The notes below the pieces were generated by a model. It searched no databases. It had not been told where the DNA came from and was given only the letters and a program-made list of their open reading frames with translations. From contig CAZCTP010000005.1 of assembly GCA_964501575.1 (NCBI GenBank), positions 2,446 to 66,445 on the forward strand: DNA of 64,000 bases, written 5' to 3'. The translations under genes were made by a program, and so were the position numbers. Below, in pieces: positions 4,384-46,058 of this stretch. Each line of letters starts with the position of its first letter. The first letter of the stretch is position 1. This DNA is from an uncultured Thermodesulfobacteriota bacterium. GTDB taxonomy: Bacteria; Desulfobacterota; CAZCTP01.

Positions 4384-4467
4384 TGCCGAAGGGGGGACTC
4401 GAACCCCCACAAGGTTGCCCTTACTAGATCCTGAATCTAGTGCGTCTCCCAATTCCGCCACTTCGGC
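4384..4467 (-). tRNA. tRNA-Leu (anticodon CAG), class II with a long variable arm; no encoded CCA
   Basis: The reverse complement folds as a cloverleaf: acceptor stem GCCGAAG/CTTCGGC, anticodon stem CTAGA/TCTAG with loop TTCAGGA, T arm GGGGG-TTCGAGT-CCCCC, discriminator A. It is GC-rich against the AT-rich genome. Confidence 0.85.
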
Positions 4468-4510: not shown

Positions 4511-5446
4511 ATGAAGCTATTTAGAAAGATAGAGGATATTAAAGAGAAATTTAGAAACCCGGTACTTACAATAGGTAATTTTGATGGTGTGCATATAGGT
4601 CATAGAAGGATCTTTGATATAGTTAAGGAGAAAGCTTCGAAAATAAATGGAGATTCAGTGGTATTTACTTTCGAACCTCATCCTGTAAAGCTTCTTATTC
4701 CGAATAAAGGTCCGTTTCTTATAACTACCTTTGAGGAGAAGATAAGATTGATTGAAGAATCTGATATAGATATTATAGTATGTCCTAATTTTGATATGAA
4801 TTTCGCAAATCAGACTCCAAGAGAATTTATTGAAAATGTTTTTGTTAATATAATAGGGATTAAAGAAGTTGTAATAGGTTATGATTATCTATTTGGTAAA
4901 AATAGAAAAGGGAATATTAATACTATCAAGGATTTTGGTAAAGAATATGGATTTAATGTTGATGTAATCAAACCGATAAAAGTAGACAATACTATTGTTA
5001 GCTGCACAAAGATAAGGGAATATATAAAAAAAGGGATGGTAAAAGAGGCATCCCTATTATTAGGAAGAGATTATTATATTGATGGTTATGTAATCAGTGG
5101 AAGAGAAAGAGGAAGGAAGTTGGGATTTCCCACAGCCAATTTAAATCCTTATAATGAACTAATACCGAAGTCTGGAGTATATGTTGCTAAAATAGTATAT
5201 TCAAACAGGATGTTTGAAGGGGTGGTAAATATAGGTAATAATCCAACATTTAGCGATACTTCCTTTTCTATAGAGGCACATATGTTTAACTTCAATAAGG
5301 ATATATATGGAGAGAAGATAAGAATAATATTTATTGATAGATTAAGAGAAGAGGTAGCATTCAAGAATCCTGATGATTTAAAAAGACAGATAGAGATTGA
5401 TATAATAACCGCAAAGAAGATATTAAACCTGAGTTACTCAAAATAA
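4511..5446 (+). CDS. ribF: Bifunctional riboflavin kinase / FAD synthetase
   Basis: N-terminal FAD synthetase motif (GNFDGVHIGHRRI) and a C-terminal riboflavin kinase domain (GFPTANL...). 311 aa. Confidence 0.9.
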   Translation: MKLFRKIEDIKEKFRNPVLTIGNFDGVHIGHRRIFDIVKEKASKINGDSVVFTFEPHPVKLLIPNKGPFLITTFEEKIRLIEESDIDIIVCPNFDMNFANQTPREFIENVFVNIIGIKEVVIGYDYLFGKNRKGNINTIKDFGKEYGFNVDVIKPIKVDNTIVSCTKIREYIKKGMVKEASLLLGRDYYIDGYVISGRERGRKLGFPTANLNPYNELIPKSGVYVAKIVYSNRMFEGVVNIGNNPTFSDTSFSIEAHMFNFNKDIYGEKIRIIFIDRLREEVAFKNPDDLKRQIEIDIITAKKILNLSYSK

Positions 5447-6449: not shown

Positions 6450-7259
6450 ATGGGTATATTATCAAAAAAAATAGCAATTATTACAGGAGGGGGAACTGGC
6501 ATAGGGAAGGCTATCTCCCTTGCCTATGCTAAAGAAGGATGTGATCTCGTAATAGCTCAAAGAACCTATGAAGCAGCTAAGAGGATGTCTGATCAGATAA
6601 AGAGTATGGGAAGGAGGGCCCTGGCATTAAAAACCGATATATCCAAGAGTGAGGATATCCGTAACCTTGTAAAAACCACTTTAGAAGAATTTGGAAGGAT
6701 AGATATATTGGTTAATAATGCAGCAGTATTCTTTCCGGTTCCCTTCTTAGAAATTTCAGAAGAGGAATTGGATATGGTGCTGTCTATAAACCTTAAAGGA
6801 ACCTTCTTACTCAGTCAGGCAGTGGCTAAAGAGATGGTCAAGAGGAGGAAAGGTAAAATTATAAATGTAGGTGCAGGACAGTCTTTACTTGGCATCCCCT
6901 TCTTCTCCCACTATGCCTCCTCAAAGGGAGGAATAAATGCTTTAACCAGGAGTATGGCAGCAGAGCTATCTCCCTATGGTATATATGTAAATGTAGTATC
7001 ACCTGGATATATCCTCACTGATAAGGTAATAGAGCTTCTTCCCCCTGAATTTGCTCAGGCGTTGACAGAGGTTATAACATCTTCAACCCCTTTAGGGAGG
7101 CTTGCCACCCCAGAAGAATGTGCTGGTGCAGCACTATATTTAGCATCTGATGAAAGTAATGGAGTGACAGGACATATTATTCCGGTAGATGGGGGCTGGA
7201 GTTCTGCTGTAAATTTGAATGAGATGATAAACAAATATAAGGAAAGGAGAGATAAATGA
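6450..7259 (+). CDS. Short-chain dehydrogenase/reductase (SDR)
   Basis: TGGGTGIG Rossmann motif, NNAA, and a YASSK catalytic Tyr-x3-Lys. 269 aa. Confidence 0.85.
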   Translation: MGILSKKIAIITGGGTGIGKAISLAYAKEGCDLVIAQRTYEAAKRMSDQIKSMGRRALALKTDISKSEDIRNLVKTTLEEFGRIDILVNNAAVFFPVPFLEISEEELDMVLSINLKGTFLLSQAVAKEMVKRRKGKIINVGAGQSLLGIPFFSHYASSKGGINALTRSMAAELSPYGIYVNVVSPGYILTDKVIELLPPEFAQALTEVITSSTPLGRLATPEECAGAALYLASDESNGVTGHIIPVDGGWSSAVNLNEMINKYKERRDK

Positions 7260-8812
7260 TGAAAGAATACGATCTTATAGTGGTTGGTTCAGGTCATAAT
7301 GGATTAATAGGAGGATGTTACTTAGCAAAGTCAGGATTAAAGGTTTTGGTCCTGGAAAAGAGAGAAATTCTTGGAGGTGGAGCCACAACAGAAGAGCTTA
7401 CCCTTCCTGGATTTAAACACGATGCCTGTTCCAGTGAACATGTTCTTATATTCTTTGGGCCGGTTATTAAAGAGCTTGAATTGGAGACCAGATATGGACT
7501 TGAATACTATTTCCATCCGGTTCTCTATGGGGTAGGTTTTATGGATGGAACAAGTATAGCTATGTATAAAGAGGTTAAAAAAACATGTGAGAGTATAGCT
7601 AAAGTTTCAGAGAAAGACGCAGATACTTATTTGTCCCTTTATAACAAATTTTTAAGTATTAAAGAGCCATTTTTGTCTCAGTCTTTTTCTCCACCTGTAG
7701 ACCCATCTGTCTTCTTTGGTAACTTAGAAAGGGTAGAAGGGGGAAAGGAGTTAGCCAGGCTCGCTATGTTAAATCCAAAGGAGGTTTTAGACGAATTATT
7801 TGAGGATGAAAGAACAAAGGGTTTTATATATGGGATGAGTGGAGCTGCATTATTGAATAGTCCTGATGAATTTGGAAGTGGTCTATCCATCTTTATTACC
7901 CTGGGTCTTCAATATTATGGAAAGATAGGAAAGGCTGTTGGTGGTGCAGGGATGTTAACATATTCTTTAAGGAAATGTCTTGAGGATAATGGGGGCGAGA
8001 CAAGAGTTAATTCTGAAGTAGATAGGATTATTGTAGAGGATGGTAAGGCTTCAGGAGTAAAGTTAAAAGATGGAGAAATAATAAAAGCAAAGAAGGCTAT
8101 TCTTGTTAATAGCCCACCTCATCTTATTGTAAAAATGGTAGGCAAAGACTATGTAGGAGAGGATTTCAGCAGAAAGGCAGAGAATTTTAGATTCGGAACG
8201 GGGCTCTTTGCTATCCATTTGGCCTTAGATGGTGAGGTAAATTTCAATGCTTCTGAATTAAATGGATGTGGAGCAACTATAATCTATGAAACCCTTTCTC
8301 ACAGTCTCAAGTGTTTCAATGAATGTAAAGAGGGAAGGATACCATGGGATAATATCTGTCTTTATTTTACAAATTATAATCTTGGACTTTCGTCCAGGGC
8401 AAAGAGAGCTCCTGAAGGGAAAGCAGCTGCACTTCTTATGGGAATACCTGTTCCTGCATTCTTTTCTGATGGGTCATCATGGCACTTTCATAAGATGAAA
8501 TTTGCTGAAGCTCTTATTTCAAAGCTGGAAGAATATGCACCTAATATAAGATCCCTAATTATTAAAAGCAGGATTGAATCCCCATCAGATATTGAAAGGA
8601 GAATACCAGGAATGGTAGGAGGGGATATTATGATAGGAAGAAATTCTTTAGAACAGTACTTTTTTAGGCCATTTCCTGGATATACACATTATAGAACATC
8701 TATACCAAATCTTTATATGACAGGGGGAGCTACCTGGCCTTCTGGTGGAATTTCTGGAGCTTCGGGTTATAACGTTGCAAATATAATAAAAGAGGATTTG
8801 AATATCAGATGA
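7256..8812 (+). CDS. FAD-dependent oxidoreductase, phytoene-desaturase (CrtI)-like / COG1233 family
   Basis: N-terminal GxGxxG dinucleotide-binding motif (VVGSGHNGL) followed by VLE...GG. 518 aa. ATGA overlap with the SDR. Confidence 0.7.
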   Translation: MMKEYDLIVVGSGHNGLIGGCYLAKSGLKVLVLEKREILGGGATTEELTLPGFKHDACSSEHVLIFFGPVIKELELETRYGLEYYFHPVLYGVGFMDGTSIAMYKEVKKTCESIAKVSEKDADTYLSLYNKFLSIKEPFLSQSFSPPVDPSVFFGNLERVEGGKELARLAMLNPKEVLDELFEDERTKGFIYGMSGAALLNSPDEFGSGLSIFITLGLQYYGKIGKAVGGAGMLTYSLRKCLEDNGGETRVNSEVDRIIVEDGKASGVKLKDGEIIKAKKAILVNSPPHLIVKMVGKDYVGEDFSRKAENFRFGTGLFAIHLALDGEVNFNASELNGCGATIIYETLSHSLKCFNECKEGRIPWDNICLYFTNYNLGLSSRAKRAPEGKAAALLMGIPVPAFFSDGSSWHFHKMKFAEALISKLEEYAPNIRSLIIKSRIESPSDIERRIPGMVGGDIMIGRNSLEQYFFRPFPGYTHYRTSIPNLYMTGGATWPSGGISGASGYNVANIIKEDLNIR

Positions 8813-11085
8813 TTATGGATGAGTATTCGGTTATAGGGAAAAGATTACCCAGGGTAGATGGAGTGATGAAGGTTACTGGAAAAGCCAAATATACTACTGA
8901 TCTTGTATTACCTGGGATGCTACATGGAAAGATTATTAGGTCTCCCTACCCCCATGCCAGGATCCTTAATATAGATACTTCAAAGGCTGAAAAACTTTTG
9001 GGAGTGAGGACTATTATAAAGGGCTCAGATTTTAATGAAATTAAAATAGGGCTTTTTGGGGACCCTGCTCAACTCGATGAACCCTTTTTAGCAGTAGATA
9101 GAGTTAGATTCATAGGAGAAGGAGTGGCAGCAGTAGCAGCTATAGACGAGGAGATAGCGGAAGAGGCTTTAGAACTTATCAAGGTAGAATATGAAGAACT
9201 TCCTTCTCTATTTAGTATGGAGGAAGCTATAAAGGAGGGTTCTTATCAGATACATGAAGGAACTGAAAGAAATATAGCTATGTCATTTTCTTCAGGGTTT
9301 GGTGATATAGATAAAGGATTCAGAGAATCTTATTATATTAGAGAGGATAGATTCTCTCTATCTCCACTTAATTCATGCTCCATGGAGACTCTGGTATCTA
9401 TAGCTGATTTTACCCCTGATGGGAAATTATCCCTATGGAGTCCAACTCAGACTCCATTTTTCCTCCGTAAACAGTTATCCAGGGCTTTAAATATGAGAGA
9501 AGGAGATATAAGGGTTATAAATCCATTTATGGGAGGAGCACACTGTTCGACAAAACATGAGGCGTTAACCCATCATATTTCCTCAGCTTTACTTTCAAAA
9601 AAGGCAGGACATCCGGTAAAGATAGAATTAAGTAGAGAGGAGGTATTTAATATAAACAGAGGGGCTCCCCCTGTTACAATTTACATTAAAACAGGAGTTA
9701 AGAAAAATGGTGAGATTGTAGCCAAGAAATATGAAATAGAGGCAGACTGTGGGGCATATAAGGGTATGAGTCCCCTTTTCCTTTATCTTTCGTACCTTTA
9801 TGCAAATTTCCCTTATCGGCTTCAAAATCTCAAATACGAAGGAAGATTAATCTATACAAATAATCCTCCCAATGCTACCCAGAGAAGTTGTGGATTGGTT
9901 TCTATAAATATAGCCGATGAGTCCCACTTAGGCATAATTTCAGAAGAGCTCGGTATGGATCCCTTTGAAATAAGGCTTAAAAATGCTTTAAGGGAGGGTG
10001 ATATAACTAAACAGAGGGTCAGGATCACAAGCTGTGGACTCTCTGAATCTATCAGAATGGTCAGAGAGAAATTAGGCTGGAATGGAGATAGAGCAATAGG
10101 GGTAGCTTGCGAAGGTTGTCCATCAGGTGCTAAGGCCTTTCTTCCCCATGATACGTCTTCTGCCTTTATAAATATCCATGAAGATGGGACTGTTACTCTA
10201 TTTACAGGACTTCCAGAACTTGGTCAGGGGTCTGATACGGTCATGGCTCAGATTGCTGCAGAAATTTTAGGTGTTTCATTAGAGGATATTAAAGTAATCT
10301 CCGGAGATACCGAGGGTGCGCCTATGGATTTAGGGAGCTATGGAAGTAGAGGGACATTCCAGGGAGGGAATGCTGTTAAGAATGCTGCTTTAGATGCAAG
10401 AAGTCAGCTTCTAATGGCTGCTGCAGAAAAGCTTTCTGTTAAGATAGACGATCTTATAATAAGAGAGAGAAATATATGGGTTAAGAATGACCCTGGAAAA
10501 AGAATCTCTGTTGCTGAGGCTGTTGAGTTTAGCCAAAATATTGGAGGGAAACCTGTCATGGGTAAGGGCTATTATAACCCCTCTTCAGATTTTTTAGATC
10601 CTCTTACTTTCAAAGGAAACATTTCCTTAGCATATAGCTTTGGAGCTCATGGGGTTGAATTAAAAGTAGATGAAGAGACGGGAGAGGTTGGGGTAATCAA
10701 TTCTATAATGGCTCATGACTGCGGTTTTCCTCTTAATCCCATGTCTGTTGAGGGCCAGATAGAAGGACAGATTTCTCAAGGATTGGGGCAGGCATTCTTT
10801 GAAAGGCGTTTTCTTGAAAATGGTCAGCAATTGAATCCAAATTTGCTTGATTATAAAATTCCCACTTCTTTAGAGATGCCCCCTGTAACACCAATCTTAG
10901 TTGAGACCATAGATCCAAATGGGCCATTCGGAGCAAAGGAGTGTGGAGAAGGACCTCAAGTGGGATTTATTGGAGCTATAATAAATGCTGTTTATAAGGC
11001 TGTGGGGGTAAGGATAAAGAAGATTCCTTTGACTCCGGAGATTATCCTAAAAGCTATAGATGAGAAGAGAAGGAGGAGAAGATGA
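8809..11085 (+). CDS. Molybdopterin-dependent hydroxylase large subunit (xanthine dehydrogenase / aldehyde oxidase family, Mo-binding)
   Basis: 758 aa with the N-terminal a/b-hammerhead signature (GK.LPRVDG..KVTGKAKYT.D) and a long MoCo-binding domain. ATGA overlap with the upstream gene. Confidence 0.8.
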   Translation: MIMDEYSVIGKRLPRVDGVMKVTGKAKYTTDLVLPGMLHGKIIRSPYPHARILNIDTSKAEKLLGVRTIIKGSDFNEIKIGLFGDPAQLDEPFLAVDRVRFIGEGVAAVAAIDEEIAEEALELIKVEYEELPSLFSMEEAIKEGSYQIHEGTERNIAMSFSSGFGDIDKGFRESYYIREDRFSLSPLNSCSMETLVSIADFTPDGKLSLWSPTQTPFFLRKQLSRALNMREGDIRVINPFMGGAHCSTKHEALTHHISSALLSKKAGHPVKIELSREEVFNINRGAPPVTIYIKTGVKKNGEIVAKKYEIEADCGAYKGMSPLFLYLSYLYANFPYRLQNLKYEGRLIYTNNPPNATQRSCGLVSINIADESHLGIISEELGMDPFEIRLKNALREGDITKQRVRITSCGLSESIRMVREKLGWNGDRAIGVACEGCPSGAKAFLPHDTSSAFINIHEDGTVTLFTGLPELGQGSDTVMAQIAAEILGVSLEDIKVISGDTEGAPMDLGSYGSRGTFQGGNAVKNAALDARSQLLMAAAEKLSVKIDDLIIRERNIWVKNDPGKRISVAEAVEFSQNIGGKPVMGKGYYNPSSDFLDPLTFKGNISLAYSFGAHGVELKVDEETGEVGVINSIMAHDCGFPLNPMSVEGQIEGQISQGLGQAFFERRFLENGQQLNPNLLDYKIPTSLEMPPVTPILVETIDPNGPFGAKECGEGPQVGFIGAIINAVYKAVGVRIKKIPLTPEIILKAIDEKRRRRR

Positions 11086-11570
11086 GGAACTATATTGATG
11101 TAAATCCTAAACTCTGTAACGGATGCAGAATATGTATGATGGTATGTTCTTTAGAAAAATCTGGTAAGTTCAATCAATTTAATACCGGTATATGGATAGA
11201 ATCCGATGATTTTAAAGGGATAAATAATCCTTTTATCTGTAGACAATGCAAAAGACCGGTATGTGTGGAGGTATGTCCTGCAGAAAAGGCATGGAAAAAA
11301 CCCTATGATTTTGATCCTCCCATATGTAGGGATGAGAAGAGTGGAATAGTGTTTCTTGATACAAGGAAGGAGAGTTGTATAGGTTGCAATGAGTGTATGC
11401 TTTCATGTCCCTTTGGATCAATAAGAGTAAACTTTGAAGATGAGAATTTAGTAAAGTGTGATCTCTGTGGAGGAGATCCTGAATGTGTTAAATTTTGTCC
11501 AACCAGAGCAATTGAATTTGTAGAAATGAGAAAACTAAATCAGAAGAAAATTATGGTTAAGGAGGGATAA
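11082..11570 (+). CDS. 4Fe-4S polyferredoxin (AorA-like electron-transfer subunit)
   Basis: 162 aa with four CxxCxxCxxxC(P)-type clusters (CNGCRICMMVC, CRQCKRPVCVEVCP, CIGCNECMLSCP, CDLCGG..CVKFCP). It overlaps both neighbours. Confidence 0.75.
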   Translation: MRNYIDVNPKLCNGCRICMMVCSLEKSGKFNQFNTGIWIESDDFKGINNPFICRQCKRPVCVEVCPAEKAWKKPYDFDPPICRDEKSGIVFLDTRKESCIGCNECMLSCPFGSIRVNFEDENLVKCDLCGGDPECVKFCPTRAIEFVEMRKLNQKKIMVKEG

Positions 11571-11572
11571 GA

Positions 11573-13480
11573 ATGTATGGATGGGCAGGAATAATTCTTG
11601 ATGTTGACCTTTCTTCAGGAAGGATAGAGAAAAAGCCCTTTGAAGAGGAGTTAGGAGTTAAGTATATAGGGGGTAGAGGAATAAATTCGAGAATTCTATA
11701 TAATGAATTAAAGCCAGGGATTAATCCATTTAGTCCGGAGAATATTATTATATTTGGTACTGGGCCTTTAGCAGGGACTATTGCTCCATCTCCAAGCAAA
11801 CTAAATGTTACCGCAAAGGCTCATTATAATTACTTGGGGACATCCAATGCTGGGGGTAGATTTGCATCTGAGCTGAAATGGGCAGGATATGATCATATTA
11901 TTATGCGAGGCAAAGCCCCTGAACCTGTATATTTGTGGATTGATGATGATGTGATTGAGCTTAAGTCTGCCAAACATTTATGGGGTAAAGATACATGGGA
12001 AACTGAGAGAATAATAAAAGAGGAGCTTGGGGATAGGGATGTTAAGATAGCTTCAATAGGTCCTGCTGGAGAGAACCTTGTTACCTTTTCAAGTATCACT
12101 TTTTCTCTTTATAGATCAGCAGCACAGACCGGAATGGGAGCAATTATGGGCTCAAAAAACCTTAAAGGGATTGCTGTGAGGGGAACTAAAAGTATAGAAG
12201 TTGCCAAGCCTACCTCCCTTAAAAGATTGACCAAGGATATTATTGATAGAATGATGAAGAATCACACCTATTCCTTTATGTCGGTCCATGGGACCCCTGC
12301 CTTTACCTATTCATATAATGAAAGGGGAAATCTCTCTATAAGAAATTTCAGGAAGTCAGGTCATTGGGATAAAGTGGAAGCATTCTCCCTTGAGAATATA
12401 TTTAAATATTATACTGCGGATAGAGCCTGCTTTGGTTGTCCTATTCACTGCAGCCATTTCTTTGTCCTAAAAGAAGGAGAATTTGCAGGAGAAAGGGGAG
12501 GTGGCATAGAATTTGGTCATCTACTCCCATTAGGAATCTCTCTTGACAACTCTAATCTCCTATCAGTATTTAAGGCTACCAATCTCTGCAACCAATATGG
12601 TATGGATACTCTGGAATTTTCCTTTGTTTTAGGAGCTGCTATAGAATGGTATGGAAAGGGAATTATTACAGATAAAGATACAGATGGAATTCCATTGGAG
12701 TGGGGTGATTATAGAGTAATTATAGATATGATTCCAAAAATTGCTAAAAGAGAAGGATTAGGTGATATTCTGGCTCAGGGAGCTATTAAAGCTGCAAAGA
12801 TTTTAGGAAAAGGAGCAGAGGAATGTATAAGCCATTGTAAAGGGATGGCAGTGGCAGCAGATGATGTGAGGCTTTCAAAGGGGACTGCTTTGAGTCATGT
12901 TACAGGGACGATACCTGCTCACCATGAAGAGGGAATGCCCACCCCAGAACTTTATCCAATGGATGCTGAAAGAGCAAAAGAGCTATTTGGAACTACAGAG
13001 GTTATAAATCCTTTATCCTATGATAAGGCATTATGTGTGATCTATTATCAGAATCAGTGCACTTTATTTGATTGTATAGAGCTGTGTAAATTTATATCTG
13101 AGTGGTTCGGTCAGGAAGTAATATTTAAAGATGTAGCTGAGCTATTCTCCTCGGCTACCGGTATCGATATAGATGCAAAGGATATGGAGATGGTTGGAGA
13201 GAGGGTTCATACCTTGGAAAGGGCGTTTAATGTAAGAGAGGGAATGAGAAGAGAGGATGATCATATGCATGGAAGAATAGTAAAAGAAGCCACTCAATCA
13301 GGACCCTTTAAAGGGGAGAGACTGGAACCTGAGAAATTTGAAGAGATGCTGGATAAATATTATGACTTGAGGGGATGGGATAAAAAGACAGGAATACCTT
13401 TAAGAAGTAAATTTAAAAAGGTAGGGCTTGAAGATATAGCAGAAGATCTGGAGAAAATAGGGATACCCCTGGAGGATTGA
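11573..13480 (+). CDS. aor: Tungsten-type aldehyde:ferredoxin oxidoreductase (AOR family)
   Basis: 635 aa matching the AOR family N- and C-terminal domains; the Cys ligand motif is CFGCPIHC. The SD is AAGGAGGG. Confidence 0.85.
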   Translation: MYGWAGIILDVDLSSGRIEKKPFEEELGVKYIGGRGINSRILYNELKPGINPFSPENIIIFGTGPLAGTIAPSPSKLNVTAKAHYNYLGTSNAGGRFASELKWAGYDHIIMRGKAPEPVYLWIDDDVIELKSAKHLWGKDTWETERIIKEELGDRDVKIASIGPAGENLVTFSSITFSLYRSAAQTGMGAIMGSKNLKGIAVRGTKSIEVAKPTSLKRLTKDIIDRMMKNHTYSFMSVHGTPAFTYSYNERGNLSIRNFRKSGHWDKVEAFSLENIFKYYTADRACFGCPIHCSHFFVLKEGEFAGERGGGIEFGHLLPLGISLDNSNLLSVFKATNLCNQYGMDTLEFSFVLGAAIEWYGKGIITDKDTDGIPLEWGDYRVIIDMIPKIAKREGLGDILAQGAIKAAKILGKGAEECISHCKGMAVAADDVRLSKGTALSHVTGTIPAHHEEGMPTPELYPMDAERAKELFGTTEVINPLSYDKALCVIYYQNQCTLFDCIELCKFISEWFGQEVIFKDVAELFSSATGIDIDAKDMEMVGERVHTLERAFNVREGMRREDDHMHGRIVKEATQSGPFKGERLEPEKFEEMLDKYYDLRGWDKKTGIPLRSKFKKVGLEDIAEDLEKIGIPLED

Positions 13481-13482
13481 GT

Positions 13483-13785
13483 ATGAAATCAGTTGAGGTA
13501 AGGCCATTTTTTAACCTGAGAAATATTATTAGAAAGGAGAGAGTAGAAATAGAGATAAAAAATGGGTTTACTGTTAGAGAGGTTATAGATAGACTGATAG
13601 ACTTATACGGTCCTTCCCTCAGAGATGCCCTTATAGACCCTGAAAGAGGGGATATACGTTCCTTTTACTGGATTCTTCTTAATGGAATGGATATCAGAGC
13701 ATTAGAGAAAGGGATAGATACTGAACTTAAGGGTGGAGAGATAATATCCATCATGCAATCCGTTGCAGGGGGTAAATTAAATTAA
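13483..13785 (+). CDS. MoaD/ThiS-like small protein with a C-terminal extension after Gly-Gly
   Basis: About 100 aa, ending ...SVAGGKLN. The ATG at 13483 sits 6 nt after GGAGGA; the tabulated TTG at 13477 is less likely. Confidence 0.5.
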   Translation: MKSVEVRPFFNLRNIIRKERVEIEIKNGFTVREVIDRLIDLYGPSLRDALIDPERGDIRSFYWILLNGMDIRALEKGIDTELKGGEIISIMQSVAGGKLN

Positions 13786-13799
13786 AAAAGGGGGTAAAT

Positions 13800-15011
13800 A
13801 TGAAAAGGGTATTATTAATAATCTCTATTTTGTGTTTATTTTTCAATATTTCCTTTGCAAAGGAGATAAAACCAGGGGTTGTTATAACAAAGGACAATTA
13901 TAAAGAATATCTTCCGGAGTTAAAGAGACTTATGACGAAATCTATGTTTAAGATTCATGTAGAGATAGAGGTTAAGAATGGATTGAAGACCATGCCTATT
14001 GTTGAGAGGGAGAAGTGGCTTTCCAAAAAGGGTTATAGGGATGCTACAAAGAAGTATTCCGGTAGATGTAAGATAGGTCCTAATATGGAGCTATTGAATT
14101 ATGTGGCTGGTGCCCCTTTCCCAAATCCAAAGAACGGGATAGAGTTAGCATGGGATATACAGCATACAATAACCTATGAGCAAGCGCATTTTATGGGTGA
14201 TTATGACCTCTATGATAAAGACAGGAAACCGGAAAGGAGGGTATCCAATAACTTCGGAGTAATTAAGTACATAGGGAGAACCTTTAATCCTCCAATGCCT
14301 GAGATAAAGCCTAATCCGGAGAGAATATGGTGGAAACTGTTCCAATATGTCACGTATCCCTTTGATGCAAGAGGATTTATTGTAACAAGAAAAAGATATC
14401 TTGATATAAAAAAGGAGGATGATATGTGGGCATACCTACCTACATTAAGGAGAATTAGGAGACTTACAGGGGCAGATGTTCAGGATCCTTTACTTGGGTC
14501 AGACTACTGTATAGACGATTATTCTGGGTGGACCCAGAGAGTAAATCCAAAGGTTATGAGCTTTAAATTCTTAGGGGAGAGAGAAATTCTATTCCCTTCC
14601 TATCATGTAGAAGATAAACCCTTTCCCATTACCCCTGAGGAATATTTAAAGGATAAAGGTGGAGCCCTTCAGGTGCCATGGTGTAAGATAAGGGTCTATA
14701 TTCTTGAGGTTGACATGCATGATCCCACATACATGTATAGTAAGAGATTACTATATGTTGATAGAGATATTGGAGATTTCAGACCTATACATGAGGAGTG
14801 CTTTGACCAGAGGGGAAGGCTGTGGAGAACTCAGGAGAATATGCAAAGAGCCTATACTTATAGGGAAAGCCATTGCTGGCCTATATCAATAGTTAGAGAC
14901 CATCAGTCCGGACACTATACTATGATCCCTCTCTATAAGCAATACCTAGATGATCCTAATTTGACGCCATCCTATTTTGAGATAAGACAGCTCATAAAGA
15001 GGGGGAGATAA
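13800..15011 (+). CDS. Secreted DUF1329-like protein (LolA-like fold predicted)
   Basis: 403 aa with a signal peptide (MKRVLLIISILCLFFNISFA) and an N-terminal ITKDNYKEYLP segment resembling DUF1329. SD GGGGGT. Confidence 0.5.
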   Translation: MKRVLLIISILCLFFNISFAKEIKPGVVITKDNYKEYLPELKRLMTKSMFKIHVEIEVKNGLKTMPIVEREKWLSKKGYRDATKKYSGRCKIGPNMELLNYVAGAPFPNPKNGIELAWDIQHTITYEQAHFMGDYDLYDKDRKPERRVSNNFGVIKYIGRTFNPPMPEIKPNPERIWWKLFQYVTYPFDARGFIVTRKRYLDIKKEDDMWAYLPTLRRIRRLTGADVQDPLLGSDYCIDDYSGWTQRVNPKVMSFKFLGEREILFPSYHVEDKPFPITPEEYLKDKGGALQVPWCKIRVYILEVDMHDPTYMYSKRLLYVDRDIGDFRPIHEECFDQRGRLWRTQENMQRAYTYRESHCWPISIVRDHQSGHYTMIPLYKQYLDDPNLTPSYFEIRQLIKRGR

Positions 15012-15048
15012 AACTATAATATTTGATAAATAAATAAAGGAGGATAAG

Positions 15049-16590
15049 ATGGAGAATTATGACATAATAATCTGTGGGGGAGGACATAACGGGCTTACAT
15101 GTGGGGCGTATCTTACTAAAGCAGGGCTTAGTGTTTTAGTAGTGGAAAGGCGTCCTGTGGTTGGTGGAGGGGTTGTTACAGAAAGTATATTTTCAGATAA
15201 AGGCTTTAAGGTAGATTTAGGAGGACATGCCCATGCTCTAATCCAGGCAAATCCTATGATAACAGATAATGAACTTGAATTAGATAGATTTGGTCTTGAA
15301 TATATATATCCAGAGTATCTATACGGACATCCATTTCTTGATGGCTCTTATATAATTCAATCCAGAGATGTAAATAAAACGTGTGATAGCTTGGCAAAAT
15401 TTTCCCAGAGGGATGCATCATCATTCTTAGAACTTTATAATCTATTCTTAAAATTTAAGGATATGATAGTTACTCTCCTCTTCTCTCCACCTCCTCCCTT
15501 AAGTGAAATGATAAAGGGTTTAGAAAGCAGTGAAGATGGTAGAGAATTATTAAGAATAATGCTTCAGAGCCCGATAGATTTTGTCAATGAAAGGTTTGAG
15601 AATGATAAGGTAAAGGCATGGCTTTACTGGTGGGGACTTCAGATAGGAGGAAGGCCTGATCAGGAGGGAACAGCCCTGTTATTTATGTGTTTACTTACCC
15701 TTGTTCAGCATTTTGGGTTCGGATATCCCAAGGGGGGTGGAGGGAAATTGAGTGAAGCCCTGGCTAAATATATTACCTCAAATGGAGGGACTATAAGAAC
15801 AAATGCAAAGGTTAAAAGGGTAATAGTAGAGAATGGAAGGGCTAAGGGTATAGAACTTTCTGATGGAGAGATTATATTTGCAAAGAAAGGAATAGTCTCA
15901 AATATTCATTTAAAGCTTCTATTCCCTGAGATGGTGGGAAGAGAGAATGTATCATCTTCATTTATTAAGAGTGTAGAGAGATTTAAAATAGGATTTTCAG
16001 GTTTTGGAATACATCTTGCTCTGAATGAAGCTTTAAGATTCAAGGTAGAGGAGATAAATAAATGCTCTGTCTTCGCAGTTGCTGAAAGTGTTAGCGATGT
16101 TTTAGAGAATTATGATGATATAGTAAAGGGAAATCCCTTTAGCAAAGAACCTCTTGTAATTGGAGTCTGTTCTACTATAGATGATCCCACAAGAGCTCCT
16201 GATGGAAAGCATGTGCTATTCCTATTTAGATTTGTCCCCTACAATATAGGAAATATGAAGTGGAAAGGTGCAAGGGAGAAGGTAGCTGGTGATATGATGG
16301 AAAAGCTCAAAAGGTATGCTCCAAATATGGATGATAAGAATATAATAGGTAAATTTATTGATGATCCAGTTACCATAGAGGCACGGAATCCATGTATGAT
16401 CCGCGGAGATATCTTTCAGGGTGATATATCCCTGTATCAGTTTGGTCCTATGAGGCCATTGATAAGGTTTAATTATAAGATGCCTGTTGAGGGGCTCTAT
16501 CTCTGTGGACCCTCTACCCATCCAGGAGGATCGGTAACTGGAGGGGGAAGAGCCTGCGCAAAGGCTGTATTAAAGGATTTAGGATTATAA
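15049..16590 (+). CDS. FAD-dependent oxidoreductase, phytoene-desaturase (CrtI)-like, paralog of 7256-8812
   Basis: ICGGGHNGL GxGxxG motif. 513 aa. SD AAGGAGGA. Confidence 0.7.
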   Translation: MENYDIIICGGGHNGLTCGAYLTKAGLSVLVVERRPVVGGGVVTESIFSDKGFKVDLGGHAHALIQANPMITDNELELDRFGLEYIYPEYLYGHPFLDGSYIIQSRDVNKTCDSLAKFSQRDASSFLELYNLFLKFKDMIVTLLFSPPPPLSEMIKGLESSEDGRELLRIMLQSPIDFVNERFENDKVKAWLYWWGLQIGGRPDQEGTALLFMCLLTLVQHFGFGYPKGGGGKLSEALAKYITSNGGTIRTNAKVKRVIVENGRAKGIELSDGEIIFAKKGIVSNIHLKLLFPEMVGRENVSSSFIKSVERFKIGFSGFGIHLALNEALRFKVEEINKCSVFAVAESVSDVLENYDDIVKGNPFSKEPLVIGVCSTIDDPTRAPDGKHVLFLFRFVPYNIGNMKWKGAREKVAGDMMEKLKRYAPNMDDKNIIGKFIDDPVTIEARNPCMIRGDIFQGDISLYQFGPMRPLIRFNYKMPVEGLYLCGPSTHPGGSVTGGGRACAKAVLKDLGL

Positions 16591-26371: not shown

Positions 26372-26962
26372 TTATCTTAAATTTAATCTCTTTTTACAGA
26401 TGGGGCAAAAATCAGGCCCTTTTATATCAGTATCTCTGAGGGAATTTGAGAAATGCATTATACATCTCGGATTATTACAATGCCTGAGTCCATAGGTATG
26501 TCCCAGTTCATGGATTGCTTCCTTTAAAGTTCGTTCTAAGAATAATCTTCTATCAGCTTTAAAACTATAATATTCCTGACGAAGTCTTGTAAGAGATATA
26601 ATGCATATATTATTTCTAATATCTGCTTCTCCAAAGACAAAATTTAATCCGGTGACATATAGATCCCTATCTATGATACCCAATATTCTTTCAGCCTGCG
26701 TTTTGAATTTATCTAAACCCCTGAGTATCTTTGAGGAATAATACTGAGCTCTTTTCGAATTAAAGGCATATTCTGGGAGAGGCTCTGGACCAGAAATTTT
26801 TACTGAAAAATCAAAATATTTTTGAAGCTCTTTACCTAAGAAGTTAAGATTTTCTTTCTCAATTTTACCAAAGGGTACTATAAGTAAATTGTTTTGGGGT
26901 TTAGATTTTATGGACGTATTGAATAGAGATAAAAAAGAAAGGGATATTATTAAATACTTCAT
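26372..26962 (-). CDS. Archaemetzincin-like zinc metalloprotease with signal peptide
   Basis: HELGHTYGLRHCNNPRCIM (HExxHxxGxxHCx4CxM) together with an N-terminal signal sequence. Confidence 0.7.
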   Translation of the reverse strand: MKYLIISLSFLSLFNTSIKSKPQNNLLIVPFGKIEKENLNFLGKELQKYFDFSVKISGPEPLPEYAFNSKRAQYYSSKILRGLDKFKTQAERILGIIDRDLYVTGLNFVFGEADIRNNICIISLTRLRQEYYSFKADRRLFLERTLKEAIHELGHTYGLRHCNNPRCIMHFSNSLRDTDIKGPDFCPICKKRLNLR

Positions 26963-31074: not shown

Positions 31075-32220
31075 ATGTTTTTAGAGCTTACTCAGGATGA
31101 AAGGAGTATTAGAGATATAGCTAAAAGATTTGCTAGAGAGAAGGTTTTTCCAAGAGCTAAAGAGATAGATGAAGGAGATGAATATCCAGAGGATTTATTT
31201 AAGCTTTTAGCAGAGATGGGATATTTTGGGATGATAGTCCCAGAGAAATATGGAGGGGTAGGAGGTAGTCTATTGTCCCTATGTTTGGTGATAGAAGAGC
31301 TTGCAAAGGTATGCGGGTCTACCTCTTTAAATGTTGGTGTTCAAACCGGAGGTATGATGCCAATTATTATTGCCGGGAATGAAGACCAAAAACAGGGATA
31401 TCTTCCTAAGCTTGCGGCTGGTGAATATATATCTGCATTGGCAATTACAGAACCGGATGCAGGTTCTGATGTTTCCTCTATAAAGACAAAGGCTTATTTA
31501 GATGGGAATGAGTGGGTTATAAGTGGTAATAAATGTTTTATAACCAATGGGGGAGTTGCTCATATATATTCAGTTTTTGCGAAAACAGATCCAGAACTTG
31601 GAAGGAAAGGAATAAGTGTATTTCTGGTTGAAAAGGAGAGGAGAGGACTATATTTTGGTAAAGTTGAAAATAAAATGGGTATGAGAGGTTCAAGGACATC
31701 CGAAGTAATTTTTGATAATCTAAGAATACCTGAGGGAAATATGCTTGGGAAGAGAGGAGATGGTTTTAAGATAGCTATGGAAACCTTAAGGATAACAAGG
31801 CCTACAATTGCTGCTCAGGGAGTTGGTATTGCACAGGGAGCATTTGAATATGCATTGAGTTATGCAAAGGAAAGGAAACAGTTTGGAAAGCCTATTACCT
31901 CATTTCAGGCAATCCAGTTTATGCTTGCAGATATAGCAACAGAGATTGAAGCAGCAAGGCTCCTTGTTTATAAAGCTGCATCTCTTATTGATAGAGGTGA
32001 AGAAGATATAGCAATGATAAGCTCCATGGCAAAGAGGTTTGCAACCGATGTTGCCATGAAGACAACAATAGATGCTGTTCAAATTCTTGGAGGATATGGA
32101 TACATGAAGGATCATCCAGTAGAAAGGATGATGAGGGATGCAAAGCTCCTACAGATATATGAAGGGACAAATCAGATTCAGAGAAATATAATAGCAAAGG
32201 AGTTGATTAAAGATGTCTAA
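31075..32220 (+). CDS. Acyl-CoA dehydrogenase
   Basis: 381 aa with the ACAD N-terminal, middle and C-terminal domains, including the catalytic Glu region near the C-terminus (YEGTNQIQ). Confidence 0.85.
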
Positions 32221-32692
32221 GTTAACCCATTTTGATGATCAGGGAAGGTCAAAAATGGTGGATATTACGGATAAGGATATTACAAATAGAGAGGCTGTAG
32301 CTTCATGTTATGTAATTGTAAATCCTGATACATTTAGTCTTATAGTAAATAAAGAGATAGAGAAGGGAGACGTATTTGAAGTTGCAAGAATAGCCGGTAT
32401 AATGGGGGGTAAAAAGACAGGTGAACTTATTCCAATGTGTCATCCATTGAATATTACATCCATTGATATAAAGTTCTATCCTGTAAATGAGGAGAGCAAG
32501 ATAAAGGTGGAGTCTACAGTAAAAATAGTTGGTAGAACTGGGGTTGAGATGGAAGCCTTAATATCTGCTACTATAGCTGCACTTACAATATATGATATGT
32601 GTAAAGGGGTAGATAAAGGGATAACAATAACAGATATAAAGCTTATAAGTAAAAAGGGGGGTAAAAGCGGGGATTTCTTCAGGGAATCCTGA
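32213..32692 (+). CDS. moaC: Cyclic pyranopterin monophosphate synthase accessory protein
   Basis: 159 aa, all of which align to MoaC. It overlaps the ACAD stop. Confidence 0.85.
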
Positions 32693-34083: not shown

Positions 34084-34869
34084 CTATCTTCTGAATTTAG
34101 AGAAGTCAGGTTTTCTCTTTTCAAGAAATGCATTCTGTCCTTCTAGTGCCTCACCAGTCTTAAAATAATCCGGGGCTAACATCCTTTGATAGGAGAGAGG
34201 GTCATGTCGCATATAATCAAATTCACTCTCGAAGGTCGCTTTCAAAACTCTTAAACATGTGGGGCTCATAGAGAGTATCTCCTGGCACCATTTATCTACT
34301 TCTTCATCTAACTTCTCCATAGGTACAACAGCATTTACAAGCCCCATTTCAAGAGCTTCCTTTGCAGTATATCTCCTACACAAATACCACATCTCCCTTG
34401 CTTTTTTTGCTCCGATTACTCTTACAAGATAACTTACAATATATCCACCAGCAGGGCTTCCAACCCTTGGTCCGTTTTGACCAAATATAGCATGTTCCGC
34501 TGCAATGGTTAAATCACAATAGTATGCTACATGATTTCCCCATCCTATTGCATATCCATTAACTCTTGCAATAACAGGTTTTAGACAGTTTCTTATTGCA
34601 TTATGAATATCTATGTAATAGTCCCATATATCTGGAAAACCTTTATTTTTTTCCCAATTTATATCTCCTCCGGCACAGAATGCTTTATCTCCAGCTCCTG
34701 TCAGAACAACCACACCTATTGTTTTGTCATCGGTGGCATCATGAAATGCCTTTATCATCTCGAGCATTGTTTCATCCGTAACAGCATTCCGGACATGAGG
34801 ACGATTGATAGTTATTCTTGCAACTCCATCCTTCTTTTCATATATTATATCCTTAAAATCCAGTCCCAT
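34084..34869 (-). CDS. MenB/BadI-family crotonase (1,4-dihydroxy-2-naphthoyl-CoA synthase-like)
   Basis: High similarity to MenB over the whole length (LTGAGDKAFCAGGD, GYAIGWG, C-terminal KRKPDFSKF). Confidence 0.75.
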   Translation of the reverse strand: MGLDFKDIIYEKKDGVARITINRPHVRNAVTDETMLEMIKAFHDATDDKTIGVVVLTGAGDKAFCAGGDINWEKNKGFPDIWDYYIDIHNAIRNCLKPVIARVNGYAIGWGNHVAYYCDLTIAAEHAIFGQNGPRVGSPAGGYIVSYLVRVIGAKKAREMWYLCRRYTAKEALEMGLVNAVVPMEKLDEEVDKWCQEILSMSPTCLRVLKATFESEFDYMRHDPLSYQRMLAPDYFKTGEALEGQNAFLEKRKPDFSKFRR

Positions 34870-34880
34870 ATAAAACCTCC

Positions 34881-35219
34881 TTAAAAATATTTAACTATAT
34901 CATTCATTATATCAAAACCTGCTCCACCAGAAAATACTATACCCACTCCAATAGCCTCTTTTATCTCTTCCTTTTTTGCACCAAGCTCATAGGCAATCGG
35001 TATATAATAGGGGAATATGTTATTCAGCCTCATAGCAGTGGCTATGCTTAAAGCCATAAGAACCTTAGTCTTTCTATCCAGAGCTCCATCACCCATTAGT
35101 TTATTTCTCATAAGCAAATAACCTTCCAATATATCTGGAAACTTATCTGCAACTGGTCTAACCTTATCTGGTAGCGAATTTGATATTTCCTTGAGTATAT
35201 TTAGTATATTTTCATTCAT
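34881..35219 (-). CDS. Carboxymuconolactone decarboxylase (AhpD-like) family protein
   Basis: 112 aa with the CMD-domain pattern. It is contiguous with the UbiD stop. Confidence 0.55.
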   Translation of the reverse strand: MNENILNILKEISNSLPDKVRPVADKFPDILEGYLLMRNKLMGDGALDRKTKVLMALSIATAMRLNNIFPYYIPIAYELGAKKEEIKEAIGVGIVFSGGAGFDIMNDIVKYF

Positions 35220-36719
35220 TTAAATCCTCCTCTCAGCCATACTCTTAGCATATGGAGATTGCATTGCTCTTCCCTTATTTATCTCATTATCTGTGAACCA
35301 TCTTTTCAGGTCAACCTTTGGATGTTTCCCCAGTCTAAATTTCCATTTATTGGCATACGGGATCGTCGCATCAATTCCTATTACAGAGGCAAGTCCTATT
35401 CTACCTGGATCATCAGCTTTCTCTGTTGGAAAGTTGGCTGTTCCCCTTATATCATTCAATATCACGTAATCACTGGCTGGATCAGCTCTTGTCATTATAG
35501 CCCAAAGTACTTCCTCCGGATCATATATATTTACATCCTCATCCACTATAACAACCATTCTTAAACCGGCAAGTGCTGTAAATGCAGAAAGGATAATATT
35601 CTTCTGATATCCTTCGTCCCTCCTCCTCCTTTTCTTTACCTGGATTACTATTCCACCAAAGGATTTCATACCATCTAATATATGGGTATCTATAACAAGT
35701 CCAGGACATATTCTATTACCCACATCATACATAGATGCTTCCCTTAAGAAACTACATATATTGTTGCCATCGATAGAATGGGCAAGGGGAGTAAAGAATA
35801 TCGGGTCATCTCTATGGGTTATGGCTGTAGCTTGAAATTTATATGTTTTATAGGATTTTCCGAGATAGCCAGGATATTCCGGGAAGAAAGGGGCCTTTCC
35901 AATCTCCCCCAATTTTTTTGCCTCCTCACTTTCCCATACCGTCTCCTTTGTATCAACATACCCTTCAATAACCCATTCGGCACAGGCAAGTGCATAGGCA
36001 TCAACTGTTTTAGCATTGACTATCTCAACAGGAGTTCCCTGAAGCGCACCAGCTATACCCAATTCATTACATCCAACAGGTACTGAAATCTTCATTCCGC
36101 CACCACCTGCTGCAATCCATATTGCGGGAGATGTACATATATTTATTGTTAATGGTAGTCTGCCTTTATTATCTGCAGTCCTTAATACATGATGCTCAAA
36201 ATGGGTATTAAGATTTATTGATAGACTTGACCAATCTTTACCCTGAAAGTGGGCTCTATTAAATGATATATGAAAGCCGCTTTCAGGGTTTCCTACCAAG
36301 GTATTCCCTCCTCCTAAAATTCTTCCTGCATCCTCTTCAGTATGTTTTATTATAGGTAGTGTAGCAAGAACATCTATACCCTTTGTAATAACATTCTTCT
36401 GGGACGGAGCGCTGTCCACAACTGTTGGATTTAGGGGATTCTTCATTGCATCAAGACACTTAAATTTGAATTTTCTATGGTCATCAATATCAAATATCCT
36501 TGCTACTCTTTCTCTCTTAGCACATATATTTGTTGTTATTTTATGTCCAGGATATCCCTTTATATTCTCAAACAGAAGGGCTGGCCCCCCATCAAATGCC
36601 TTTGCAATACCAGATACTTCATATATTGGATCAACTTCATTCTTCACAACAAATATATCACCGATATCTTTTAAGTATTCAATTGTAGACCTTGTACTTG
36701 TAATATCTTTCTTAGCCAT
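35220..36719 (-). CDS. UbiD-family (prFMN-dependent) reversible decarboxylase
   Basis: 499 aa aligning across the full UbiD fold. Confidence 0.8.
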   Translation of the reverse strand: MAKKDITSTRSTIEYLKDIGDIFVVKNEVDPIYEVSGIAKAFDGGPALLFENIKGYPGHKITTNICAKRERVARIFDIDDHRKFKFKCLDAMKNPLNPTVVDSAPSQKNVITKGIDVLATLPIIKHTEEDAGRILGGGNTLVGNPESGFHISFNRAHFQGKDWSSLSINLNTHFEHHVLRTADNKGRLPLTINICTSPAIWIAAGGGGMKISVPVGCNELGIAGALQGTPVEIVNAKTVDAYALACAEWVIEGYVDTKETVWESEEAKKLGEIGKAPFFPEYPGYLGKSYKTYKFQATAITHRDDPIFFTPLAHSIDGNNICSFLREASMYDVGNRICPGLVIDTHILDGMKSFGGIVIQVKKRRRRDEGYQKNIILSAFTALAGLRMVVIVDEDVNIYDPEEVLWAIMTRADPASDYVILNDIRGTANFPTEKADDPGRIGLASVIGIDATIPYANKWKFRLGKHPKVDLKRWFTDNEINKGRAMQSPYAKSMAERRI

Positions 36720-36740
36720 ATTTGTTCCTCCTTCAATAAG

Positions 36741-37076
36741 TTATACTTCAAAAGCCAAATTTTTAAACCCTTTCTGGCAGTCTCTATCCAGAGATCCACC
36801 AGCAACTCCAGGAATAAATGATATTGTGTCATTATCCTTTAATATTCTATTTAACATTTCTTCAGAATTTGCAGATATACCATTAAGAAGTATAGAGATT
36901 CCAGGAATCCCTGTTTTTGGATTTATAATAATACTTCTCTTAAATTCTTCCCCGTATTTCTTGATAATAATATCTATAAATTCTCTCAAGTTAACCTCTT
37001 TATTAAGAGTAAAAATTTCCACCTCCTTTCCTATTATATTCTTAAGACTCAGATAATATTTAACTTCAACTTTCAT
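36741..37076 (-). CDS. MoaD/ThiS-like small protein with a 17-aa tail after Gly-Gly
   Basis: ...FIPGVAGG followed by SLDRDCQKGFKNLAFEV. It overlaps the upstream AOR by 11 nt. Confidence 0.5.
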   Translation of the reverse strand: MKVEVKYYLSLKNIIGKEVEIFTLNKEVNLREFIDIIIKKYGEEFKRSIIINPKTGIPGISILLNGISANSEEMLNRILKDNDTISFIPGVAGGSLDRDCQKGFKNLAFEV

Positions 37077-45264: not shown

Positions 45265-45816
45265 TTGGATAGGATGCAATTAATATATGAGGAAGCAGAT
45301 GATATAAAGGGTAATTTTATTCAGGAGTCTTTCTTAAAGTCCTTAAATAAATGGGATAAAATGGAAGGGGAGTTTTATATTAAAAAACCTGGAATGATGC
45401 GATGGAATTATAAAAAGCCATATATTCAGGAGATAATAATTTATGGTAGGAAGATATGGATCTATTATCCTTTAGAGAAGGAAGTAACTGTGAATAAATT
45501 ATCAGATGCATTGATAGATAATATTTCAATAACCTTTCTATTAGGTGCTGGAAATATAAAGAAAGATTTCAATATTAAAATGGCTAAGGTCCCTTATTCA
45601 TTTAATCTCTTTCCAAAGAATCAAATGGGAGATGTAGATAGAATATTCATAAATATTGATAGTAAGAGTTATTTAATAAAACTAATGGAGATCCATGACA
45701 TATATGGGAATATAAATAGGCTAAAGTTTAATAATCTTTCAATAAATAATAATATTTCTTTATCTTTGTTTATTTTTAAACCACCAAAAGATGTGGAGAT
45801 AATAGGTGAAGAATAA
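45265..45816 (+). CDS. lolA: Outer-membrane lipoprotein carrier protein LolA (N-terminus uncertain)
   Basis: The LolA-family pattern runs through the ORF. An in-frame hydrophobic segment lies upstream of the tabulated TTG start; see findings. Confidence 0.6.
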   Translation: MDRMQLIYEEADDIKGNFIQESFLKSLNKWDKMEGEFYIKKPGMMRWNYKKPYIQEIIIYGRKIWIYYPLEKEVTVNKLSDALIDNISITFLLGAGNIKKDFNIKMAKVPYSFNLFPKNQMGDVDRIFINIDSKSYLIKLMEIHDIYGNINRLKFNNLSINNNISLSLFIFKPPKDVEIIGEE

Positions 45817-46048
45817 AATTAAGAGTAATCTTATCTTAAATACATTGGGAGAATATTGTCCTATTCCTATAATTAAGACTCAGGAGTATATAAATAAAAT
45901 AAAAATGGGCGAAGTACTTGAGATATTATCGGATGATAAAGGAATTATAAAAGATATGATAGACTGGTGTAAGGGTAGTGGCAATGAGTTTATAGGGTTT
46001 GATAAGGATAATGATAAGTATAGACTATATATAAAAAGATTGGTATAG
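45806..46048 (+). CDS. TusA-like sulfurtransferase
   Basis: 80 aa with the N-terminal LNTLGEYCPIPIIKT motif (CPxP active-site Cys). GTG start overlapping lolA. Confidence 0.65.
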   Translation: MKNKIKSNLILNTLGEYCPIPIIKTQEYINKIKMGEVLEILSDDKGIIKDMIDWCKGSGNEFIGFDKDNDKYRLYIKRLV

Positions 46049-46058
46049 GGAGAACATC

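Follow-up and report, generated by a model that had tools for sequence, protein, structure and literature searches.

MoaD-family proteins with residues beyond the Gly-Gly motif are encoded directly downstream of two tungsten-type aldehyde:ferredoxin oxidoreductase genes

The window, which is the whole stretch of 64,000 nucleotides analysed here, contains two paralogous genes for tungsten-type aldehyde:ferredoxin oxidoreductases (AOR1 and AOR2), and each is directly coupled to a small gene (copy 1 and copy 2) whose product is a MoaD/ThiS-family beta-grasp protein. Neither product ends at the Gly-Gly (GG) motif of the family as translated. The reading that we favour, with a probability of roughly 55%, is that both are AOR-dedicated MoaD-type sulfur carriers that are synthesised as precursors and then trimmed by a protease whose gene lies in another part of the genome. 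The gene pairing and the precursor form are both known, and these genes are a fresh example of them and not a new system.

Results

Family and fold of the two proteins

Both proteins scored above the cut-off of the Pfam family ThiS (PF02597; 29.4 bits for copy 1 and 32.3 for copy 2, cut-off 22.5) and of the NCBIfam model TIGR01687, moaD_arch (51.7 and 51.6 bits, cut-off 49.5); they share 36% identity with each other. The ends of both profiles coincide exactly with the GG, which occupies the last two profile positions in both copies while the primary products continue past it. The bacterial MoaD equivalog models stayed under their cut-offs for both copies, and Pfam Urm1 was passed by copy 2 only (30.8 bits, cut-off 21.8), with a score below that of copy 2 for ThiS. 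The sequence-only reading had proposed alignment to the MoaD, CysO and SAMP families, and the matches indeed end at the GG of both copies: the terminal GG of Ta0895 (2g1e), Pyrococcus MoaD (1vjk), M. acetivorans SAMP1 and CysO falls opposite G97 of copy 1 and G94 of copy 2, and the C-terminus of 4n6e aligns with the GG of both copies in the same way.

AlphaFold2 models built with a 120-sequence alignment gave a confident beta-grasp core for copy 1 (pLDDT 92.1) and a beta-grasp fold for copy 2 as well (77.8 overall, about 90 in the core), with a pLDDT below 50 for both tails. When these models were compared with the PDB using Foldseek, the top matches of both copies were SAMP1 structures (3po0/4hro; target-normalised TM 0.88-0.91), MoaD within molybdopterin synthase (6jbz, TM 0.86), Urm1 and CysO, with a probability of 1.00. 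The copy 1 and copy 2 proteins also recur on 5-7 independent contigs drawn from several samples. Because of the profile scores, the models, the structural matches, the independent contigs and, for copy 1, the dN/dS value given below, both ORFs are real genes and not chance ORFs.

Table 1. Positions of the features discussed in the text. Loci of the GG-less class are numbered within their own sequences.
Feature	Position	Strand	Details
AorA-like polyferredoxin subunit	11082-11570	+	PDB 9mqx_E, 5.8e-25; AorA 8c0z_C, 1.4e-23
AOR1, tungsten-type aldehyde:ferredoxin oxidoreductase	11573-13480	+	AFOR_N + AFOR_C, 635 aa
Copy 1, MoaD-family beta-grasp gene	13483-13785	+	100 aa
Copy 1 core, residues 1-97	13483-13773	+	VAGG at end; from translation
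Copy 1 G96-G97	13768-13773	+	From translation
Copy 1 tail KLN	13774-13782	+	Stop codon 13783-13785
FAD/NAD oxidoreductase genes flanking copy 1	7256-8812; 15049-16590		
MoaC, cyclic pyranopterin monophosphate synthase	32213-32692	+	Pfam PF01967
AOR2, second paralog	37066-38928	-	AFOR_N + AFOR_C, 620 aa, 34% identity to AOR1
Copy 2, MoaD-family beta-grasp gene	36741-37076	-	111 aa
Copy 2 core, residues 1-94	37076-36795	-	VAGG at end; from translation
Copy 2 tail SLDRDCQKGFKNLAFEV	36794-36744	-	17 aa; stop codon 36743-36741
TusA-like sulfur-transfer protein	45806-46048	+	CPxP motif; first gene of TusA/DUF116/PP-loop ATPase cluster
MoeA (metal insertion into molybdopterin)	59741-60943	-	
GG-less class, L008	4369-4671		
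GG-less class, L104	about 4878-5180		
GG-less class, L121	2140-2445		
GG-less class, L124	3889-4203		
GG-less class, L130	4377-4691		
GG-less class, L174	4873-5187		

Operons and genomic context

The observation that a MoaD/ThiS-like ORF lies right after each AOR gene stands. The ATG of copy 1, at 13483, follows the AOR1 stop codon on the same strand after a gap of 2 nt and has a GGAGG sequence 9 nt upstream, and the start of copy 2 overlaps the AOR2 stop by 11 nt (37066-37076), again on the same strand. The best solved relatives of the two AORs are the tungsten AORs 1aor, 9g7j, 9mqx and 8c0z, those of AOR1 being 1aor, 9mqx_D and 8c0z_A. The polyferredoxin gene ahead of AOR1 overlaps the gene before it, and it and AOR1 make up a module of the AorA/AorB type.

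The copy 1 operon is tightly packed and runs in the order SDR, FAD oxidoreductase, xanthine-dehydrogenase-family Mo subunit, AorA-like polyferredoxin, AOR1, MoaD-like protein, DUF1329 protein and FAD oxidoreductase. It extends over 6450-16590 on the plus strand with tight overlaps between its genes; both oxidoreductases are of the FAD/NAD type and the DUF1329/LolA-like protein is secreted. The gene for the Mo subunit (8809-11085, 758 aa) has no adjoining genes for 2Fe-2S or FAD subunits, and its position within the AOR1 operon places molybdenum-hydroxylase and tungsten-AOR genes in one transcription unit. The copy 2 operon (34084-38928, minus strand) consists of AOR2, the MoaD-like gene, UbiD, CMD and enoyl-CoA hydratase, a setting that suggests a pathway for aromatic or unsaturated acids or aldehydes. 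A second UbiD paralog is found at 52126-53604 (+). An Rfam scan of the window found one tRNA only (4384-4467, minus strand) and showed that neither AOR operon is preceded by a Moco/Wco riboswitch, and a promoter and terminator scan gave background level only.

Two genes of cofactor synthesis, MoaC and MoeA, are present in the window, neither of them beside an AOR and both more than 4 kb from either AOR. MoaC belongs to the general molybdopterin pathway. The TusA-like gene opens a plus-strand cluster (45806-47850) that continues with a DUF116 gene and a PP-loop ATPase gene with ThiI/tRNA_Me_trans and NFACT-R_2 domains. This cluster resembles a module for sulfur relay or thiolation, and the TusA-like protein is a possible upstream sulfur donor to the MoaD-like carriers. 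Just past the right end of the window (L092, 835-5260) there are genes for a bis-MGD molybdopterin oxidoreductase (849 aa) and for NrfD-type membrane and 4Fe-4S subunits. The organism encodes several Mo/W enzymes, yet genes for MoaE, MoeB and MoaA are absent within 83 kb.

The statement that the window holds no E1-like or JAMM gene was upheld by Pfam and motif scans and extends to 83 kb. Pfam matches, newly scanned or precomputed and covering all sizeable ORFs, revealed no ThiF/MoeB, MoaE or JAB/MPN domain in the window and the adjoining 19 kb, which together make up 83 kb of the 109-kb metagenomic contig, and no ORF of 60 aa or more, in the window or in the flanking 19 kb, contains the JAMM motif HxHx(6-9)SxxD. 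Two other peptidases were considered as the trimming protease, namely a TldD/PmbA-family metallopeptidase (48106-49503) and an M54 peptidase (26372-26962), and both were set aside because nothing ties them to the carriers. The TldD/PmbA gene stands alone and adjoins a gene for a single 576-aa protein in which Memo, AMMECR1 and DUF6599 are fused (49542-51272, plus strand). In a Promethearchaeota genome (L045), a minus-strand ORF at about 1-1419 (473 aa) has a canonical JAMM motif (HSHPSLDIFFSSTD); an AOR gene and a MoaD-like gene with a GG end are located a few kb away.

Residues after the Gly-Gly motif

The C-terminus of copy 1 reads ...IMQSVAGG-KLN and that of copy 2 ...FIPGVAGG-SLDRDCQKGFKNLAFEV, where the GG is G93-G94 and the tail includes a Cys. 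The sequence-only reading was thus accurate in describing VAGG followed by extra residues in both. Where the family usually has Pro-Pro ahead of xGG, the alignment shows Gln-Ser for copy 1 and its relatives and Pro-Gly for copy 2.

How frequent such tails are was judged from a profile search run exhaustively against 1.84 billion cluster representatives, which returned 1,730 relatives, the best 150 of which were aligned to the profile. The nearest set consists of 50%-identity cluster representatives, and termini were scored by hmmalign. Among the best ~150 of the 1,730 relatives an exact GG end was found in 110, a GG followed by a tail of 1-34 residues with no common sequence in 35 (23%), and no GG in 4. 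In a second set nearer the family consensus, 7/117 had tails, and tails also occur in a few MoaD-like genes near AOR genes. Given these frequencies, two tailed paralogs and a tailed ortholog represent only a mild enrichment, and tails are a common and variable trait of the family.

Word-indexed homolog searches with single proteins as queries retrieved a single protein, P0002, for copy 1 and came back empty for copy 2. P0002 is the only close ortholog of copy 1 (76% identity); its gene comes right after an AOR gene, and its C-terminus reads GG-ID. The DNA of the two genes shows a common AT-rich spacer in which the frame is changed by an indel, and their final codons are GGT AAA TTA AAT TAA in copy 1 versus GGG ATT GAT TAA in P0002. 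The copy 1 tail is spacer that is read until the first stop codon, ahead of the ribosome-binding site of the next gene, and the frame change between the orthologs implies that it has no sequence-specific function. The last 17 residues of the core, ELKGGEIISIMQSVAGG, are identical between copy 1 and P0002 as against 76% overall, and dN/dS is 0.14 over the 97 core codons. Purifying selection acts on copy 1, and in this comparison the GG arm is its most constrained part. The next relative of copy 1, P0004 (47% identity), is also encoded after an AOR gene and has an exact GG end.

No ortholog of copy 2 was found among 5.8 billion proteins, the nearest relatives being at most ~35% identical. Its tail likewise has no homolog among the 5.8 billion proteins and is modelled at low confidence, and nothing supports a role for its Cys, which the sequence-only reading had pointed out. 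Searches of plasmids by tblastn with copy 2 and with the GG-less class described below gave zero matches. AOR and JAMM genes are both missing from the surroundings of two tailed archaeal SAMP1-like relatives, P0258 and P0210, and a metagenome scan with AOR1 found no ortholog above 49% identity and yielded no further tailed ortholog for copy 1 or copy 2. Neutral read-through is the best description of the tails, and it implies that a trimming activity exists elsewhere in the genome.

AOR-MoaD pairing in other organisms

The pairing of AOR and MoaD genes is not new. Iyer, Burroughs and Aravind described AOR-adjacent MoaD genes in 2006 as a 'tungsten cofactor biosynthesis' neighbourhood that is sporadic and probably mobile, and also reported an AOR-MoaD fusion in Azoarcus (PMC1779556); a further description, for archaea, followed in 2010 (PMC2948915). 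The window resembles the neighbourhood of 2006 in that the MoaD-family gene is strictly beside the AOR gene and in that copy 1 is flanked by genes for a 4Fe-4S ferredoxin and for FAD/NAD oxidoreductases. It differs in that its copies carry 3 and 17 residues past the GG, and in that MoeB and MoaE, frequent in that neighbourhood, are absent from the 83 kb examined here. The AOR operon of Aromatoleum aromaticum ends in two MoaD-like genes, aorD and aorE, and the purified enzyme contains neither AorD nor AorE (PMC6365974). Recombinant AOR activity rose from 4.5 to 16 U/mg once aorDE was added to the expression plasmid (PMC9295118). In Thermococcus kodakarensis, deletion of the AOR-adjacent gene for UblC (TK1065) left ~54% of AOR activity, and FOR activity was nil in the deletion strain, both in sulfur-free medium (PMC11323500). 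None of the solved AOR entries matched in the PDB contains a MoaD-like chain.

Among 160 AOR loci surveyed in genomes and metagenomes, a MoaD-like gene was found near about half of the genome loci and near 12/80 of the metagenome loci, and these MoaD-like genes mostly end in GG. Outside the lineage of the window, 15 of the 17 GG-bearing AOR-adjacent genes have an exact GG end. The closest AOR1 relatives that were found (L098-L102, 45-49% identity) have no MoaD-like ORF within 3 kb, which suggests that the carrier gene is gained and lost among close AOR lineages; an AorA-like ferredoxin gene is located upstream of AOR in at least L098, L100 and L102.

The survey also revealed a GG-less class, a conserved MoaD-fold protein of ~100 aa that is encoded directly downstream of polyferredoxin-AOR pairs at 6 loci (Table 1). 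The AORs beside it are 39-43% identical to AOR1. Its C-terminus reads ...GDV[VI]QLFG and is followed by a true stop codon, and it covers positions 1-82 of the 88 profile positions, the last six (PPxxGG) being missing. No dedicated Pfam or NCBIfam family exists for it. At 5/6 of these loci the same cluster contains a second, GG-bearing MoaD-like gene, and the GG-less class may correspond to one member of the aorD/aorE pair. Because the class sits beside related AORs, it is possible for AOR-linked beta-grasp proteins to have a role that is independent of the GG. Profiles built for the two classes gave copy 2 59.3 bits on the GG-bearing and 22.2 on the GG-less profile, and gave copy 1 43.8 and 42.9 bits, respectively; copy 1 has neither the RYxPD...KKA insertion nor the WW pair that mark the GG-less class.

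Discussion

The two MoaD-like proteins are explained best as precursors of sulfur carriers. As members of the TIGR01687 subfamily they would serve the upstream AOR, to whose translation each is coupled, by helping to make the molybdopterin part of its tungsten cofactor. The first in-frame stop codon lies inside the downstream spacer, which leaves an intact GG with 3 or 17 predicted disordered, non-conserved residues behind it. Since a thiocarboxylate carrier can work only if the second Gly is its free C-terminus, the tails would have to be removed. We infer that a protease from another part of the genome, most likely of the JAMM/MPN+ kind, cuts off the tail behind the second Gly, that the Gly exposed in this way would be adenylated and thiocarboxylated by an E1 of the MoeB/ThiF type, whose gene would likewise lie at another site, and that each carrier would be specific for the adjacent AOR.

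The contention that carrier function depends on removal of the tail has good precedents. E. coli MoaD is inactivated by insertions or substitutions at the C-terminal Gly, as summarised in a study of Mycobacterium tuberculosis MoaX, a protein that is itself cleaved proteolytically at the Gly82-Ser83 bond and is inactive in E. coli unless correctly processed (PMC4326299). The carriers QbsE of thioquinolobactin synthesis and CxnE of chuangxinmycin synthesis end in GG-CF and in GG plus the decapeptide SEAARAEESR, and their trimming by the JAMM proteases QbsD and CxnF, respectively, ahead of adenylation has been proposed (PMC5925218). In Deinococcus, a MoaD-MoaE fusion is cleaved by DR0402 (PMC8832034).

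The window proteins resemble QbsE and CxnE in being MoaD/ThiS carriers with a short peptide past the GG. However, the clusters of QbsE and CxnE include the JAMM protease and often an E1-rhodanese, whereas the window copies have no protease gene nearby, and the product in those systems is a secondary metabolite, whereas the context here is a tungsten enzyme. With MoaX, D. radiodurans DR2607/DR0402 and SAMP1-MoaE/HvJAMM1 they share a GG that is internal in the translated product, and in MoaX, DR2607 and SAMP1-MoaE cleavage that exposes the GG is needed for molybdopterin synthase to work. The C-terminal part of those proteins is a functional MoaE domain, however, whereas the window tails are short, non-conserved and disordered in the models. 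The MoaD-related protein 1v8c of Thermus thermophilus also has a solved MoaD core and residues past the aligned VAGG, but its extra part is a folded domain of ~80 residues in place of a short tail.

Several results count against the precursor-carrier reading: there is no JAMM/MPN, ThiF/MoeB or MoaE gene in the 83 kb, the Pro-Pro before xGG is replaced in both copies, the GG-less QLFG protein is conserved in related Fer4-AOR operons, and copy 2 lacks an ortholog among 5.8 billion proteins. The missing E1 and JAMM genes and the GG-less protein also lend some weight to another explanation, unlikely in our judgement though it deserves to be taken seriously, in which the proteins are AOR-specific assembly factors or chaperones that work independently of the GG and are not thiocarboxylated, for example by holding apo-AOR or a pterin intermediate for insertion of the tungsten cofactor. 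Such proteins would not require a free C-terminus, and tails would be tolerated. The lack of E1 and JAMM genes nearby would fit, as would the GG-less class after AORs at 6 loci, the AOR-MoaD fusion in Azoarcus, the nearly equal scores of copy 1 on the two class profiles, and the variable C-terminus of the copy 1 group and its nearest neighbours (GG, GG+2, GG+3 or truncated). However, the window proteins retain the whole GG arm, all 17 of its residues being identical between copy 1 and its ortholog; copy 1 does not have the marks of the GG-less class and copy 2 falls clearly in the GG-bearing class. In addition, the GG-less protein has a GG-bearing companion at 5/6 loci while the window has one MoaD-like gene per AOR, which makes it more likely that this gene is the carrier, and a MoaD-like protein neither co-purified with AOR (PMC6365974) nor appears in solved AOR structures. 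The structural-partner alternative raised in the sequence-only reading therefore fares unevenly: that reading held that non-beta-grasp folds or GG-less orthologs would favour it, and the fold is beta-grasp, while positional homologs without GG do follow related AORs at 6 loci and keep the alternative alive despite the conserved GG arm of the window proteins. It is doubtful, though conceivable, that in the lineage of the window carriers have been turning into GG-independent, AOR-specific cofactor-insertion or assembly factors and that the window proteins are carrier-to-chaperone intermediates. Such a shift would explain both the drifting C-terminus (GG, GG+2, GG+3, GG+17) and the GG-less QLFG class.

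It is also improbable that the two are SAMP/Urm1-like protein modifiers, that is, precursors trimmed in the manner of ubiquitin and conjugated to lysines of AOR or other targets in a regulatory role. SAMP1 and Urm1 are among the top structural matches and there are weak matches to their profiles, the three Thermococcus Ubls, of which the AOR-adjacent UblC is one, form conjugates (PMC11323500), and SAMP1 conjugation is reported to regulate molybdopterin synthase (PMC4443979). However, the NCBIfam scores are far under the cut-offs for SAMP1 (NF041918; 46.1 and 30.5 for copies 1 and 2, cut-off 60) and for Urm1-like proteins (NF053661; 21.9 and 23.3, cut-off 70), no E1, E2 or JAMM genes were found nearby, and strict operon coupling to AOR suits cofactor supply better. 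The host moreover appears to be a bacterium (lspA, lolA, ftsK, RNase Y, zapA/zapB, dprA). To our knowledge, conjugation of the SAMP/Urm1 type is little documented in bacteria.

Decay of the two genes, with tails that arose when the original stop codon was lost in copies no longer needed, is very improbable: copy 2 is without orthologs, sits at the end of a long branch and has the lower model confidence, and the AOR1 relatives without a MoaD-like gene within 3 kb indicate that the partner is dispensable in some lineages, but the dN/dS and the identical C-terminal arm contradict decay for copy 1, and both ORFs are intact, above the family cut-offs and tightly coupled to their AOR genes.

Little is understood about how tungsten enzymes mature, and AORs attract biotechnological interest because they can reduce acids to aldehydes. 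Heterologous production of AOR benefits from co-expression of the linked MoaD-like genes (PMC9295118). If the carriers are made as precursors, a host without the right protease would yield an inactive carrier and a poorly matured AOR, comparable to MoaX in E. coli (PMC4326299), and a construct that ends at the GG would be a practical remedy. The GG-less class further points to a division of AOR-associated beta-grasp proteins into two kinds, which may bear on the unexplained aorD/aorE pair.
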